Positions 20,447-50,123 of a stretch of DNA of 53,619 nt are shown in pieces. The notes under the pieces were generated by a model. The model had not been told where the DNA came from. It searched no databases and saw nothing but the letters and a program-made list of their open reading frames with translations. A program made the position numbers and the translations under genes. The DNA lies in the IMG/VR virus record IMGVR_UViG_3300042559_002371, positions 1 to 53,619 of that record; one strand, given 5' to 3'. The stretch is from a virus. Taxonomy: Duplodnaviria; Caudoviricetes. Within the stretch, counting starts at the first letter, position 1; the number at the start of each line of letters is the position of its first letter.

Positions 20447-20998
20447 GTGTGGAAACCAGCTAACAACCTAGAATGGCAGTCTGAGGCACTTTGCGCCCTC
20501 CCAAAAAATAATCATTATAGAGACTGGTTTTTCTCAAAAGACCCTCAAGAAAAGTACAAAGCAAAAAACCTTTGTTATGAGTGCCCAGTCAGAGCTCAGT
20601 GTCTTCAGTGGGCGCTAGAGCACAGACAAGTTTGGGGTACGTGGGGCGGTAAAGATGAAAGTGAAATGCGTCGAGCTTTATCTGTTTCATATAAAGGTGA
20701 AGAGATAAAAAGACGTCGTTACCCTCACTGCCCTTATTGCTCAGCTCGTCCTTCTAAATTAGAAACTAGTTCACAAGAAATTCCTGGTGGTGGGAGATGG
20801 ACTGTCGCCAAGATAGTTACATGTACGGTATGTAACTTCTCTTGGCGCAGTCGAACTAGTGTTAACGCAATTGAAGCTTATAAACAGGATCGAATAGACA
20901 AATCTGAAAAGAGAGCTCGCATTCGTGAAAAGAAAGCTTTAAAGCTTGAAAAAAAGCGGTTGGCTAAAAAATTAAAAGCAAAATCAAAAATTAAGTAG
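20447..20998 (+). CDS. whiB: WhiB-family transcription factor fused to a zinc ribbon and basic tail
   Basis: WQSEALC...FF...AKNLCYECPVRAQCL.WAL...GTWGG, then CPYC...CTVC and a Lys/Arg-rich tail. Confidence 0.9.
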   Translation: MWKPANNLEWQSEALCALPKNNHYRDWFFSKDPQEKYKAKNLCYECPVRAQCLQWALEHRQVWGTWGGKDESEMRRALSVSYKGEEIKRRRYPHCPYCSARPSKLETSSQEIPGGGRWTVAKIVTCTVCNFSWRSRTSVNAIEAYKQDRIDKSEKRARIREKKALKLEKKRLAKKLKAKSKIK

Positions 20999-22496
20999 TG
21001 CTTTTAACTTCTACTTCAAACGGCGGTCTATTAGCTAGGGCTTTTCTCATATCGTTTCTAAACGATTGATAGTGCCCTTGAGCGTATTCAAATTGTTGAA
21101 ACTGGATTAGCTCATCCATTGCTTGTTCTCTTGATATATATCCAAGACCAGCTAAGCTCCACTTCCATAAAGCATCTACCCCCCAGAAATCCATAAAGTG
21201 CATAACAGAAGGAATTCTGCTCTTTGAGCGTTCAATGTAGTTTTCTACTGCAGGAGAGGTAATTTTGTCGAACTTAATAGTTCTCCAAAATTCCGAATCT
21301 TCCCTACCACCTTGATAATGAAAAACTGTAAAATCTTTGTAGTATTCATACATTTTTGATGTTTTAGCATTGTATTTTTCAATAGATGCTTTATTTAGTG
21401 TTTTCTCTTTGGTAGAAGATAAATATTCTTGACAAAAAGTAAATATTTGCATGATAGTAGCATGAATGCTTGTTGCTTCTAGAGGTTCAATAAAAGAGCT
21501 TGCAAGTCCAGTAACTAGAACATTACCTTTCCAAAACTCTTTCAATCTTCCTGATTCATACTTAATATGTTTGATTGGCTCTATAGGATGTCCCATAATT
21601 TTTTCGGCCTCAGCTTGCGCCTCATCATCAGAGATAAAAGCACTGCTATAAACATAGCCGCATCCCCTACGACCGCCTGTTGGAGTTCTCCACATCCACC
21701 CTGAAGACAATGCCTCTGCAACTGTAACTGGTTGTACTTTTTCTCCCCCCTCTTTGTAGGGTATAAGAAATGGCATAGCTCTGTCTACAAGAAGTTCATT
21801 TTTGTAGTCAATCCAACCTATGTCTAGCTTATTAGCTAGTAGCCTATGGAATCCTGTCGCATCGATAAAAAAATCACCTTCAATGATTTCACCAGATTCA
21901 AGCACAACACTGTCGACAATTCCATTACTTGAAACTTTTACATCTTTGATTATAGAATCAATATGTTTTGTATTGGTAGTTTTTGTTATATGCTCTCTAA
22001 AATATTTTGCAACTTTTGGAGCATTAAATTGAAAACCATATCCTCCTTGAGGAGGCATTTTATTTAAATCATAAGCTTGACCAATTGTTGAAGATAGGTA
22101 AGCTTTTTCTGGACCAAACTCCGATATAACATAATTAAATAAATGATCTGGAGACCTTTTTGATGTCTCAGATCCATTAATTGGAGCCCAGTAATGGCCT
22201 TTTTCTTTCGCCCAATTAATATGCTTTAAAGCGTACTTTGGGACAGCATCTACTTTTTCTACAAAATCATTAAAATCAAATTTAATTCTATTTGGATTTA
22301 AAAATTCATTATTACTAAAAAGAGTAGCACCATCTAACAAATCATATAAAAATCCGCTTGTAGCTTCTCCAGCTCCAATAATCCCAATCGATTCTGATTC
22401 AATTACGATTACTTCGTGTGTATTGGGGTTTGAAGCGTGGATAGTAAAAGCAGAAACCCATCCAGCGGTACCTCCACCACAAACTACAAATTTCAT
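20991..22496 (-). CDS. Tryptophan halogenase-like flavin-dependent enzyme
   Basis: GGGTAGW (FAD binding), IIGAGEAT, PKYALKHINW (Lys at the catalytic position), FIDATG, GWMWRTP, FIEPLEATSI. Confidence 0.88.
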   Translation of the reverse strand: MKFVVCGGGTAGWVSAFTIHASNPNTHEVIVIESESIGIIGAGEATSGFLYDLLDGATLFSNNEFLNPNRIKFDFNDFVEKVDAVPKYALKHINWAKEKGHYWAPINGSETSKRSPDHLFNYVISEFGPEKAYLSSTIGQAYDLNKMPPQGGYGFQFNAPKVAKYFREHITKTTNTKHIDSIIKDVKVSSNGIVDSVVLESGEIIEGDFFIDATGFHRLLANKLDIGWIDYKNELLVDRAMPFLIPYKEGGEKVQPVTVAEALSSGWMWRTPTGGRRGCGYVYSSAFISDDEAQAEAEKIMGHPIEPIKHIKYESGRLKEFWKGNVLVTGLASSFIEPLEATSIHATIMQIFTFCQEYLSSTKEKTLNKASIEKYNAKTSKMYEYYKDFTVFHYQGGREDSEFWRTIKFDKITSPAVENYIERSKSRIPSVMHFMDFWGVDALWKWSLAGLGYISREQAMDELIQFQQFEYAQGHYQSFRNDMRKALANRPPFEVEVKSTT

Positions 22497-47200: not shown

Positions 47201-50123
47201 GCGCACCAGTAGGGCCTGTTACAGTGCTATCTGCACCTGTAGGTCCTGTTGGACCAACTTCACCCTGAGGACCAGTTGGACCTGGAACAGTGCTATCTGC
47301 ACCTGTAGGTCCAGTAGCACCCGTAGCACCTGTCGGTCCTGTAGAACCAGTAGGACCAACTTCACCTTGCGCACCTGTTGCACCTGTCGCACCAGTAGGT
47401 CCTGTTGCACCTTGAATTCCTTGAGCACCTGTAGCACCAGTTGGACCTTCTACTGTGCTTGCAGCACCTGTAGGTCCTGTTGGACCAACTTCACCCTGAG
47501 GACCAGTTGGACCTGGAACAGTGCTATCTGCACCTGTTGCACCTGTTGCACCTGTTACTGATGGACCAGTCGCACCCGTTGGGCCTGTAGGACCTTGAAT
47601 ACCTTGAGGGCCCATGTCGCCAGTGCGAGCAAAGGTAATAATTACATCTTCATCATTACTAAAACTTGTTGCAAGACCACTTACATATGAAACTGGAACT
47701 GTGAAGTATCCAGAGTTCTCGGTGATTGCATTTGTAATTGCAAAAAGAGCAAAGTCTGCAGAATCAGTCTTGTTGCTGATTCGCATGTGTCCCTTGATTG
47801 GGCTTGTTGAGTCATCAATCGTACGAAGGAACTGTTGAATATCAATTGCACCGTCTGATTCATCATCGATGAACATGTTGGTTGCAAGTTGAAGATCAAG
47901 ATTATTAAAACGAAGCTTTCCTACCCCTGGGTCTGCTTCTGTTGCATTTGCAGTGAAGGTGTAGTCAAACGATGCTCCACCAAAATTACCTGTAGCACCT
48001 TGAGGACCTGTTGCACCAGTTGGACCCTGAGAACCAGTCGCACCAGTGGCACCTGTAGCACCTACTGCTCCATCAAGTCCTGCGGCTCCTGTGGCACCAG
48101 CTGGTCCAGTTGCTCCCACATTTCCTTGAGCTCCAGTTGGTCCAGTTGCTCCCGCTGCTCCTGTGCTTCCTGTAGCACCTGTAGGTCCAACCTCACCTGT
48201 CGCGCCTGTCGCTCCTTGTGCACCTGTTGCTCCTGTCGCGCCTGTGGCACCTGTAGCACCTGTCGCACCAGTGTCACCTTTGTCACCAGTACGAGCGAAT
48301 GTAACTACTACATCCGCACCATTTGAGTATGAAGTTGCAAGACCATCGAGATGTGAAACTGGAATCTTGAAATATCCAGATGCCTCGGTGCTTGCACCAG
48401 TAATTGCGTAGAACGCAAAGTTATTTGAATCGCTCTTTAGCGAAATGCGAAGATGACCCTTGACTGTGCTTGTTGAGTCATCAATTGTTCGTAAGTAGTT
48501 TTGAATGTCGATAGCGCCATCAGACTCATCGTCAATAAATAAGAAGGTCGCATCTGTTAAATCAGCATTGTTGAACTTAAGAGTTCCGCTTCCTGGGTCT
48601 GTGTCACCAGTGTTGTTGCTAAATGTGTAGTCAAGTGTGACTCCACCGAATTGCCCTGTTGCTCCTGTTGCACCTGTTGGACCCGCTACTGTAGAAGCAG
48701 CACCTGTTGGACCAACTTCACCTTGCGCACCTGTTGCACCTGTCGCACCAGTAGGTCCTGTTGCACCTTGAATTCCTTGAGAACCTTGAGCACCTGTAGC
48801 ACCAGTTGGTCCTACATCACCTTGAGCACCTGTTGCACCTGTTGCACCTGTAGCACCTGTCGCACCAGCACCAGTCGCACCTGTTGCACCGACTTCACCC
48901 TGAGGACCAGTAGGTCCAACTTCACCAGTTGCTCCTGTGGCTCCTGTAGCACCTACTGCACCAGCACTTCCTGTTGCACCAGTTGGTCCTGTTGGACCAA
49001 CTTCACCTGTCGCACCAGTAGGACCAGCAACTGTTGATGCAGCACCTGTAGCACCTGTTGGACCCTGCGCACCTGTAGCACCAGTTGCACCAGTAGGTCC
49101 CTGAGCACCGACATCACCAACACGAGCAAAAGTAAGAATTACATCGTCGTTATTATCAAATGCAGTCGCAAGACCACTTAGATAAGTTACGTTTACCTTG
49201 AAGTATCCAGTGTCTTCGGTGTAACCATCCACTGCAAGCATTGCAAAGTAATTTGAATCTCCCTTACGAGAGATGCGAATGTGGCCCTTCAACTCGGAGG
49301 TTGAAGCCATCATTGTTGTTAGAAGATTTTGTACATCAATTGCGCCATCTTGCTCATCATCAATGAACATGTATGAGGCTGAAGCAAGATCAAGATTGTT
49401 GAACTTGACTCGACCAGAACCTGGGTCTGAATCTGTGGTGTTTGTTGAGAATGTGTAATCAACAGTTACACCACCAAATTGACCTGCAGGACCTGTAGCA
49501 CCAGTAGGACCAGTTACATTGCTAGCTGCACCTGTCGCACCTGTTGCTCCTGTTGCACCTGTTGGACCAACTGGACCAGCGACGGTAGAGGCAGCACCTG
49601 TAGCACCTGTTGCACCTGTTGGACCGACGGAACCTGTAGCTCCTGTTGCACCTGTTGGACCTGTTGAACCTGTACTACCTGTTGGACCGCCAGCTGGACC
49701 TGCTGGTCCTACAGGACCCTGAGGACCTGCTGGACCAACTTGTCCACGAAGTACGTCAATACCAGCTGGAGAAGTGGTAATACGGTCAACTGTATCTAAT
49801 TTTGTAACTTCAACATCACTGCCATCACCTTGTGGCAGGTAAAATCTAAATTCTGTTGCTCTTCTACCTGAAACTCGAACTTTTGCAGTCCAATACCAAC
49901 CGCGAGGGCTGAGGTCTAAATCATCTGTACAAGGTAATTCGACAGTAAAAGACCCTGTGTTATTGAGGTCTACTACAATAGGACTTGATACAATAACAGC
50001 ATCATTAGTGTCTTCAATTCGGCTAGATGCCGTAAAAGTAACTGTTCCTGAGGCTGGAGAGCCAGAACTCTTGAGGTACTGACCCACAACATTTCTTGTG
50101 TTCACGTCAGGAGAAAAACTCAT
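44262..50123 (-). CDS. Giant collagen-like fibre protein (~1950 aa)
   Basis: Very long GPT/GAT tracts interrupted by three ~120-aa repeated domains and many small modules. Start placed at ATG 50123 (MSFSPD) with GGAG RBS. Confidence 0.9.
47233..48781. repeat. Dispersed exact direct repeats within the giant collagen gene
   Basis: 74-bp copies at 47233-47306 and 47464-47537; 73-bp copies at 47353-47425 and 48709-48781. Confidence 0.8.

Follow-up and report, generated by a model that had tools for sequence, protein, structure and literature searches.

The closest described counterpart of the locus analyzed here comes from the spores of Clostridioides difficile, in which the pairing of an enzyme with its collagen-like substrate is already known. 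The glycosyltransferase (GT) SgtA is reported to be a protein of 358 aa with a GT-A domain (aa 1-260) and four TPRs (aa 262-358), it depends on Mn2+, takes UDP-GlcNAc as its sole donor and places beta-O-GlcNAc onto Thr (and Ser) of GPT peptides from the collagen region of BclA3, its gene being situated directly upstream of bclA3 (PMC7157674). We describe here a comparable arrangement in a virus, the IMG/VR record IMGVR_UViG_3300042559_002371, whose 53.6 kb contig was analyzed as a whole and is referred to as the window. Its minus strand contains, between positions 20991 and 50150, a block of 15 genes, including seven collagen-like genes with Thr as the prevailing residue at the Y position of their G-X-Y triplets, and ending in a methyltransferase (MT), an SgtA-like GT and a halogenase-like gene. 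We consider it reasonably probable that this block is a fibre module in which an SgtA-type GT glycosylates the collagens of the phage itself, with the MT as its partner and the halogenase as an optional member.

Glycosylation of virions by phage enzymes is represented, in the literature that we found, by the major capsid proteins of mycobacteriophages. Che8 and Rita encode GTs of their own that glycosylate virion proteins (PMC11256854, citing Freeman et al., 2023); they resemble the present case as actinobacteriophages whose GTs put glycans on virion proteins, whereas the reported target is the major capsid protein, the GT genes are situated at the genome end, and a collagen acceptor is not mentioned. 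In open-access papers and preprints we found no description of an SgtA-type GT that accompanies phage fibre genes together with an MT, nor of a bacterial cassette of this kind beyond C. difficile.

A putative collagen-directed glycosyltransferase and its candidate acceptors

The GT gene (22493-23572; minus strand, as are all genes of the block) encodes 359 aa and matches phrog_13126 (E 1.7e-119). Pfam recognizes a Glycos_transf_2 domain (26 bits against a cutoff of 23.3) followed by TPR matches at residues 248-340, and the motifs D83-x-D85 and DTGSTDGT are invariant in an alignment of 11 phage GT homologues. The AlphaFold (AF2) model (pLDDT 83) comprises a GT-A domain (residues 1-165) and an all-helical TPR domain (residues 173-357). 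When this model was compared to the PDB with Foldseek, the top matches were SunS and ThuS, which are S-glycosyltransferases of glycocins (E 1e-11, approximately 380 columns), followed by TPR proteins including the TPR domain of OGT and GmaR. VIA-align gave Z 15.4 for ThuS (261 residues) and 14.9 for SunS (253 residues), while single domains reach Z 16-17 (WrtF, Z 16 over residues 1-168; TPR proteins, Z 15-17 to the helical part); among the top 50 rows, only those of SunS and ThuS begin at residue 1 and reach past the GT-A domain into the helices. GmaR of Listeria, which has O-GlcNAc activity on flagellin, is also the best PDB sequence match of the GT domain (E 1.4e-5). SunS, ThuS and GmaR thus share with the window GT a GT-A enzyme joined to a helical or TPR substrate-recognition domain, and all three act on peptide or protein acceptors; they differ in that identity is only 13-16% and the acceptors are Cys residues of glycocins or flagellin.

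The likeness to the published description of SgtA comprises the GT-A domain with C-terminal TPRs, the length of the protein (359 vs. 358 aa) and the situation of the gene beside a GPT-rich collagen-like gene. Furthermore, the window GT is 43-46% identical to GTs of Clostridia that adjoin collagens bearing BclA_C, the TNF-like C-terminal domain typical of BclA-type exosporium nap proteins. On the other hand, the enzyme described here is phage-encoded and would presumably serve seven virion fibre proteins devoid of BclA_C, and it is paired with an MT and, in relatives, often also with a halogenase. Judged by architecture, fold and conserved pairing with Thr-rich collagen genes, the GT2-TPR protein very probably belongs to the SgtA type of protein glycosyltransferases and has collagens as its target, and the proposal of the original prediction, namely that a phage-encoded GT serves the collagens, finds support in the same comparative features. 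A more specific idea, that the TPR domain binds collagen peptides in the way of prolyl 4- or 3-hydroxylases (P4H/P3H), was set aside, as the data do not separate it from a generic TPR domain: the matches are sub-threshold (PF23558, E 0.009 for the window GT and 1e-4 for the GT of an IMG/VR contig with another backbone, L064; in the PDB, P3H1 at 8e-5 and P4H at about 0.01), and generic TPR proteins rank higher in the fold searches.

The candidate acceptors are encoded directly upstream of the trio. Counting runs of at least four triplets, the seven collagens contain 508 G-X-Y triplets (longest run, 35), with Thr at Y in 266 of them (52%), followed by Gln (83), Ala (43) and Pro (11); the X position is occupied mainly by Pro (231) and Ala (149). 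The Pfam Collagen cutoff of 27.2 bits is reached by five of the seven, the proteins of 163 and 233 aa scoring 23.1 and 23.5 bits, respectively. It had been claimed from the letters alone that there are seven such genes, that their Y position is mostly Thr and that the window encodes no prolyl hydroxylase, and all three points held: Pfam, in the ORFs of the window to which it was applied, detected neither a 2-oxoglutarate (2OG) oxygenase nor a prolyl hydroxylase. The near absence of Pro at Y fits a route free of hydroxyproline. Nevertheless, Thr is the usual residue at Y in phage collagens that have no such GT, as in cyanophage ACG-2014f, and Thr-richness alone is thus no evidence of glycosylation.

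In the mechanism that we propose, a freshwater actinobacterial siphophage would build trimeric collagen-like stalks bearing various terminal binding domains, with glycine-rich, adhesin-like giant proteins beside them. The MT and the GT, the last conserved genes of the block, would form a two-enzyme unit. During assembly in the host cytoplasm, the GT, with a nucleotide sugar as donor, would attach a sugar to Thr (perhaps also Ser) at the Y position of G-X-T triplets in the phage's own collagens, and the Methyltransf_24 enzyme would most likely O-methylate the transferred glycan. Such a glycan could stabilize a Pro-poor, Thr-rich triple helix, or shield it against proteases or adsorption, and the product of the halogenase-like gene would be an optional addition.

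Pairing of glycosyltransferase and collagen genes in phages and bacteria

An exhaustive profile search collected 1207 representatives of the GT family at E <= 1e-30. Among phages, a scan of IMG/VR provided 67 loci with GTs 62-94% identical to that of the window, and a collagen ORF (here and below, at least 15 triplets) was found within 5 kb of the GT in all 43 relatives with at least 4 kb of upstream sequence. Of 64 related contigs, 58 have the MT upstream of the GT, at a distance of up to 1 kb in 49. Some phage cases of the pairing are more independent of this group. L064, which has a portal and a prohead protease gene beside its fibres, carries its GT2-TPR gene between two collagen genes, in the order collagen (Mtd_N), Fringe-like GT, GT2-TPR, collagen (738 aa), Gly_rich_2, collagen, Gly_rich_2, and in L067-L069 a collagen of 654 aa is situated 5 kb from the GT. 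This stretch of L064 (2512-15728), next to the portal gene, begins with the genes of a seven-gene glycosylation island that is interleaved with collagen and Gly_rich_2 genes, encoding GT4, two GT25, a UDP-galactopyranose mutase, a Fringe-like GT, an FkbM MT and a cytidylyltransferase.

The bacterial set was obtained by a profile scan over one genome per species, and comprises the best 80 of 169 relatives (39-59% identity), distributed over Actinomycetota, Bacillota, Pseudomonadota and Planctomycetota, together with single loci labelled Bacteroidota, Saccharimonadota, Verrucomicrobiota and Methanobacteriota. A collagen ORF is found at 200 bp or less from the GT in 34 of these 80 loci, on the same strand in 32 of the 34, and upstream in 22 and downstream in 12 of the 34; the count rises to 40 within 2.5 kb, and to 58 anywhere in the fetched flank. 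When the count is limited to loci flanked by 1.5 kb or more on either side (52), the corresponding figures are 21 (within 200 bp) and 42 (anywhere). The density of collagen ORFs amounts to 0.127/kb up to 2.5 kb from the GT vs. 0.023/kb beyond, the distant ones belonging mostly to 13 Mesorhizobium loci. Among the 34 adjacent collagens, 31 have Thr at Y more often than any other residue, and Thr occupies 1029 of the 1902 Y positions in collagens within 2.5 kb of the GT. In ten annotated bacterial loci, the neighbours are housekeeping genes (Mur ligases, FtsQ, GatB, UvrC, CtsR and queuosine synthesis, by Pfam), which points to chromosomal two-gene cassettes rather than prophages. Two Clostridia loci carry BclA_C on the adjacent collagen (L084, 39.0 bits; L095, 34.1 bits; cutoff 38). 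The co-occurrence and synteny that the original prediction had named as a check were therefore found on both sides, in the phage relatives (43/43) as well as in bacteria (34/80).

In a quick tree, 14 phage GTs group in one clade with the GT of a 9.6 kb contig labelled 'Saccharimonadales', the bacterial sequences being arranged largely by phylum. This contig (L072), assigned to a metagenome-assembled genome (MAG), encodes a GT 59% identical to that of the window with two collagen ORFs just upstream, and it is probably a phage contig misbinned into a bacterial MAG. From the distribution as a whole, a broader proposal can be put forward tentatively, and with clearly less confidence than the fibre-module reading itself: O-glycosylation of Thr by SgtA-like GT2-TPR enzymes could be a general prokaryotic answer to hydroxyproline, encoded by a two-gene cassette of collagen and GT that has spread over many bacterial phyla and that phages have captured, with methyl-glycosylated and perhaps halogenated fibres as a tunable virion surface.

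Several observations weigh against glycosylation of the phage collagens by this GT. Most of the 67 phage relatives have the same backbone (WhiB, helicase, PolA), and their synteny is largely inherited rather than independent. No collagen ORF is present in the flank of 22 of the 80 bacterial loci, many of which are short contigs, and in the 13 Mesorhizobium loci a giant G-X-T collagen is situated about 5-6.6 kb away on the opposite strand. The jumbo phages PaBG and Erwinia pEa_SNUABM_2, whose GT homologues are 27-37% identical, have no annotated collagen neighbour. Thr-rich collagens occur in many phages without an SgtA-like GT, an enzyme that such fibres do not need in general. The likeness to SgtA itself is drawn from its published description; no member bearing the name C. 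difficile was present among the 7,996 family members returned by a Clostridia-enriched alignment search, almost all of which are unnamed, and NCBIfam has no SgtA model. Finally, in two relatives (L042 and L043) the MT-GT pair is inverted with respect to the fibre genes, co-oriented with WhiB and convergent with the S8 protease and collagen genes, which shows that the two genes are a separable unit.

The last observation also bears on an alternative target of the enzymes. The MT-GT pair, with or without the halogenase, might remodel a surface glycoprotein of the host, such as its own collagen-like protein, or the host cell wall, blocking superinfection or changing the receptor; besides the pair being transcribed apart from the fibre genes in L042 and L043, GTs of the first cultured Nanopelagicales phages have been suggested to act on DNA or the cell wall (PMC10202952). 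Additionally, genomes of the Nanopelagicales type contain collagen plus SgtA-like GT cassettes of their own, at 50-53% identity: a Ca. Nanopelagicales MAG (L080, 10001-12791) and the actinobacterium SCGC AAA044-D11 (L081, 4498-11062, inside a sulfotransferase/GT island). The likely host order having such a cassette, a host protein could be the target, which likewise counts against the fibre-module reading. We nonetheless rate the host target as unlikely, given that in the 58 relatives (of 64) having both genes the fibre block closes with the pair, that the GT of L064 is flanked by phage collagen genes, that the phage itself encodes 266 candidate acceptor triplets, and that in the bacterial paradigm the GT serves the adjoining collagen gene.

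The methyltransferase partner and the halogenase-like gene

The original prediction described a tightly packed trio of MT, TPR-GT2 and halogenase-like genes, and the distances agree: the halogenase gene shares 4 bp with that of the GT, which is in turn 9 bp away from the MT gene. The MT gene (23582-24157; 191 aa) encodes a class I S-adenosylmethionine (SAM)-dependent MT of the Methyltransf_24 family (E 8.9e-13; 49.5 bits vs. a cutoff of 26.3), with a secondary match to the O-methyltransferases of Methyltransf_3 (E 0.0012), and its nearest PDB sequences are cation-dependent O-methyltransferases, which are weak matches (E 0.014-0.026). Its tie to the GT is further illustrated by fused proteins. 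Of the 150 GT-family members listed, the 49 that exceed approximately 500 aa were scanned for domains; five of them are Methyltransf_24-GT fusions (P0011, P0012, P0013, P0037 and P0062) and six contain other SAM-MT domains, while many of the remaining ones have extra GT domains (GT1/4, GT8, GT9, GT32-like or a second GT2) and others show GT2/TPR matches alone, or none at the threshold used. Fusions and conserved adjacency support the notion that MT and GT act on one product, for which an O-methylated glycan is the most likely candidate.

The halogenase-like gene (20991-22496; 501 aa) matches the Pfam Trp_halogenase family (E 5e-80) and phrog_2928 (E 4.5e-90). The protein shows GGGTAG at the FAD site (GxGxxG), a Lys (Lys87) aligned with the conserved Lys of 6nsd and 5lv9, W-M-W-R-T-P at residues 267-272 (an Ile-to-Thr variant of WxWxIP) and EPLE, whose Glu aligns with the same motif in Thal. 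Its PDB sequence matches are Thal, RebH and PrnA (E ~1e-50), with the cyanophage enzyme VirX1 behind them (6e-35). VirX1, reported to have a wide, open active site (PMC8407142), belongs to the same family of flavin-dependent halogenases and shares the key motifs, although the window enzyme is closer to the bacterial Trp halogenases than to VirX1. Neither a flavin reductase nor partner genes of a biosynthetic pathway are seen in the window.

That this gene is a regular member of the set, as had been proposed, is not supported. It is present in 30 of the 67 relatives, downstream of the GT in 23 (43-86% identity) and upstream in seven (28-33%), in six of which it is situated between MT and GT; these two positions are occupied by divergent lineages, and no halogenase is found beside the GT in any of the 80 bacterial loci. 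Cyanophage halogenases are 32% identical to that of the window, vs. 22% for the copy in the related phage DSL-LC01. The repeated gain of a halogenase beside the GT could denote a functional tie or merely a permissive site. A connection between halogenases and fibres in cyanophages was also considered: the gene is approximately 2-3 kb from homologues of the 2035-aa protein described below in S-PM2 and S-RIM44, and adjoins genes annotated as 'L-shaped tail fiber protein assembly' in P-SSM2. This was set aside as suggestive only, the halogenase sitting among auxiliary genes in the three genomes.

The same facts have to be weighed in favour of an entirely different explanation, in which the whole trio is an auxiliary (moron) island inserted at a permissive convergent junction between the fibre and WhiB genes, tailoring a small molecule or DNA and having nothing to do with collagens. 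Besides the auxiliary surroundings of the cyanophage homologues, the coming and going of the halogenase and its shifts of position would be expected from such an island; the paper on DSL-LC01 treats its halogenase as an auxiliary metabolic gene, contains no mention of the word 'collagen' and leaves the block undiscussed (PMC10611076), and the MT families nearest in PHROGs are labelled 'DNA methyltransferase'. An island of this kind leaves unexplained the adjacency of GT and collagen in 34 of 80 bacterial loci, across several phyla and amid housekeeping genes, and also the SunS/ThuS/GmaR-like fold of a protein GT and the MT-GT fusions. We accordingly regard it as improbable for the trio as a whole, and continue with the reading in which MT and GT modify the phage collagens.

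The fibre block, its structural proteins and the phage that carries it

Gene calls, Pfam and PHROGs place the block opposite to the tail module. On the plus strand, positions 435-9951 encode a tape measure, minor tail proteins of the Dit/Tal type and a fibre or spike protein (8380-9951) that includes the chaperone domain Peptidase_S74; genes of replication (PolA, helicase, exonuclease, Sak4 and SSB) and two WhiB-like regulators come after them. The co-orientation of the 15 genes on the minus strand, opposite to the tail module, had been noted at the outset and is borne out; the limits of the block required one correction, as its start at 20991 stands, while the end first given, 50123, is an internal ATG of an ORF that can begin at a TTG at 50150. 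The second WhiB-like gene (20447-20998, plus strand) encodes 183 aa, in which a long C-terminal extension comprises a Cys-rich stretch resembling a zinc ribbon and a tail rich in lysine, and its stop overlaps convergently with that of the halogenase by 8 bp. Promoter and terminator scans gave no signal above shuffled sequences, and the tRNA scan found none.

In the order of transcription, the block opens with a giant collagen-like fibre (44262-50150; 1962 aa, 250 triplets in 25 runs; Pfam Collagen E 2.6e-71), which matches phrog_819, phrog_6320 and phrog_5073 (tail/tail fibre) at E 1e-148 to 1e-169, and two further collagens, of 233 aa (43535-44236; 15 triplets; Pfam Collagen) and 629 aa (41631-43520; 85 triplets; Pfam Collagen). 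A BNR/Asp-box beta-propeller-like protein comes next (40706-41629; 307 aa), with repeated S-x-D/N-G-x-x-W motifs, a DUF6242 match (E 3e-5), a match to the F510_1955 glycosylhydrolase family that is below the cutoff (E 2e-8) and a homologue in DSL-LC01, followed by a collagen of 216 aa (39828-40478; 40 triplets) whose N-terminus matches phrog_3449, 'tail collar protein'. The middle of the block is occupied by a glycine-rich virion protein with Ig domains (37049-39733; 894 aa; He_PIG E 4e-11; phrog_22713 and phrog_5838) and a glycine-rich giant (30923-37030; 2035 aa; phrog_5838, 'virion structural protein', E 1e-137; ALK_LTK_GRD E 0.0012). 'Virion structural proteins' of approximately 1100 aa from S-PM2 and S-RIM44 match residues 1219-2035 of the giant and residues 21-196 of the 894-aa protein, from which the pair seems to be a split and much enlarged version of a single cyanomyophage virion protein.

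Downstream of them are a collagen-like fibre of 792 aa (28535-30913; 75 triplets) and a predicted S8 subtilisin-family protease (26933-28522; 529 aa; Peptidase_S8 E 8.5e-32; phrog_9158 E 5e-61). The latter contains the Asp/His/Ser motifs and a mycosin-like match (E 8e-24), with homologues at 50-79% identity in many related contigs; its membership in a modification pathway, as part of the set first proposed, is not supported. The remaining genes before the enzymes encode collagens of 528 aa (25293-26879; 33 triplets) and 163 aa (24823-25314; 10 triplets; Pfam Collagen E 6e-5) and a concanavalin/carbohydrate-binding-module-like putative binding protein (24192-24869; 225 aa; weak Laminin_G_3 match, E 0.002) that is kept in relatives at 31-81% identity. 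The 163-aa collagen ends in a domain resembling a fibre tip, with matches to phrog_21510, phrog_8780 (minor tail) and phrog_18179.

The fibres of 528 and 792 aa share an N-terminal domain modelled as a jelly-roll (pLDDT 83), whose fold matches, all weak (E ~2e-3), are a metagenomic phage penton protein, TNF/C1q domains and ExsFA. Stand-alone jelly-roll ORFs are situated just upstream of a full-length collagen in L021, L023, L031, L034 and L062 (173-174 aa) and in L059 and L061 (205 aa). The C-terminal part of the 792-aa collagen (approximately 260 aa) resembles phrog_677, 'baseplate wedge tail fiber protein connector' (E 1e-15), and within its last ~150 aa (28535-28999, minus strand) a Cys-x2-His-x2-Met string is found that recalls type-1 copper sites; the last 154 aa gave no Pfam match at E <= 0.05. 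A recurrent element of approximately 35 aa (N-D-A-Y ... L-Y/W-V-W-N/T-G ... W ... G) repeatedly breaks the collagen runs, e.g., within 28535-30913 and 44262-50150, occurs also in the collagen of L067, and may be a small knob domain setting the register. The 'IDFP' N-terminus was tried as a marker of location and rejected, as BLAST against collagens bearing Mtd_N aligned the collagen part only.

Where these fibres would be placed on the virion is a further point of divergence. The original prediction envisaged an exosporium-nap-like layer over the virion, i.e., a dense coat on the capsid or the whole particle rather than tail or side fibres, and several features can be cited for it: the block is apart from the tail-tip module, which has a fibre/spike gene of its own, the total collagen coding capacity is very large, and the best fold match of the jelly-roll is the phage penton protein 4dmi (E 1.7e-3, TM 0.34). 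This match is too weak to use, as is the fold search of that domain in general. BclA_C was absent from the matches of all seven collagens (E <= 0.01) and also, at E <= 0.05, from those of the C-terminal segments of the proteins of 528, 629, 792 and 1962 aa. The PHROGs matched are overwhelmingly tail-fibre, tail-collar and minor-tail families, even if the repeats as such account for much of the signal, and together with the cyanophage homologues they indicate tail fibres or generic virion structural proteins. Furthermore, collagen genes vary in number and length among close relatives, as genes of host recognition would, and in the first cultured Nanopelagicales phages a hypervariable island 'related to host recognition' has been noted to include collagen-like genes (PMC10202952). 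The block consequently looks like a hypervariable module of fibres and host recognition, and the coat that had been proposed appears improbable.

Fibres of a similar build are found in PHROGs 819, 5073 and 6320, P-SSM2 and ACG-2014f, as G-X-Y stalks with small globular inserts and frequent Thr at Y. Those of cyanophages differ in having more Pro at Y and retaining an oxygenase, and in a GT that is not detectably related to that of the window. The collagen-like fibre cluster of P-SSM2, for instance, includes a piuC-type gene and has Pro at Y in 13/53, 18/60 and 20/89 triplets. In the tail module of ACG-2014f (L157, 2608-8096), the gene of a 929-aa collagen (Thr at Y, 57/128) precedes those of an unrelated GT and of a 2OG-Fe(II) oxygenase, a trio that may represent a parallel collagen-modifying set in cyanomyophages.

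With regard to the phage itself, its WhiB genes, a GC content of about 42% and the 73-75% protein identity of its PolA and helicase to those of Actinomycetia phage DSL-LC01 place it among the freshwater actinophages. DSL-LC01 (OQ999401) is known from a genome of 129 kb, assembled from the metagenome of Dishui Lake; its annotation includes a tape measure, a major tail protein and tail assembly chaperones, from which we infer a siphovirus. It shares the backbone and a minus-strand block with GT, halogenase, collagens, an 8.5 kb glycine-rich gene and a BNR-like gene; it differs in the swapped order of GT and halogenase, in the divergence of the latter noted above, and in that no MT homologue was detected in its block. 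Given the length of this nearest annotated relative, the source genome of the 53.6 kb contig is probably longer, much of it lying outside the window. Elsewhere in DSL-LC01 there are a cluster of TauD/TfdA dioxygenase, methyltransferase and beta-mannosyltransferase genes (L152, 5802-8332) and a GT paired with a UDP-galactopyranose mutase (L001, 11955-14091), and by analogy the unseen part of the genome studied here may hold further glycan genes.

Collagen-like tail fibres are common in phages, and the way in which Pro-poor helices free of hydroxyproline are stabilized or protected has seldom been addressed. Comparative evidence gives good support to the proposal that Thr-rich collagen fibres are glycosylated by a phage enzyme, a proposal open to direct testing, and an SgtA-like GT situated beside seven G-X-T collagens offers an assayable case of glycosylated fibres in phages of a bacterial group that is among the most abundant in freshwater. 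If true, the cassette would provide a general rule for predicting glycosylated collagens in prokaryotes, as well as enzymes for the production of glycosylated recombinant collagens.

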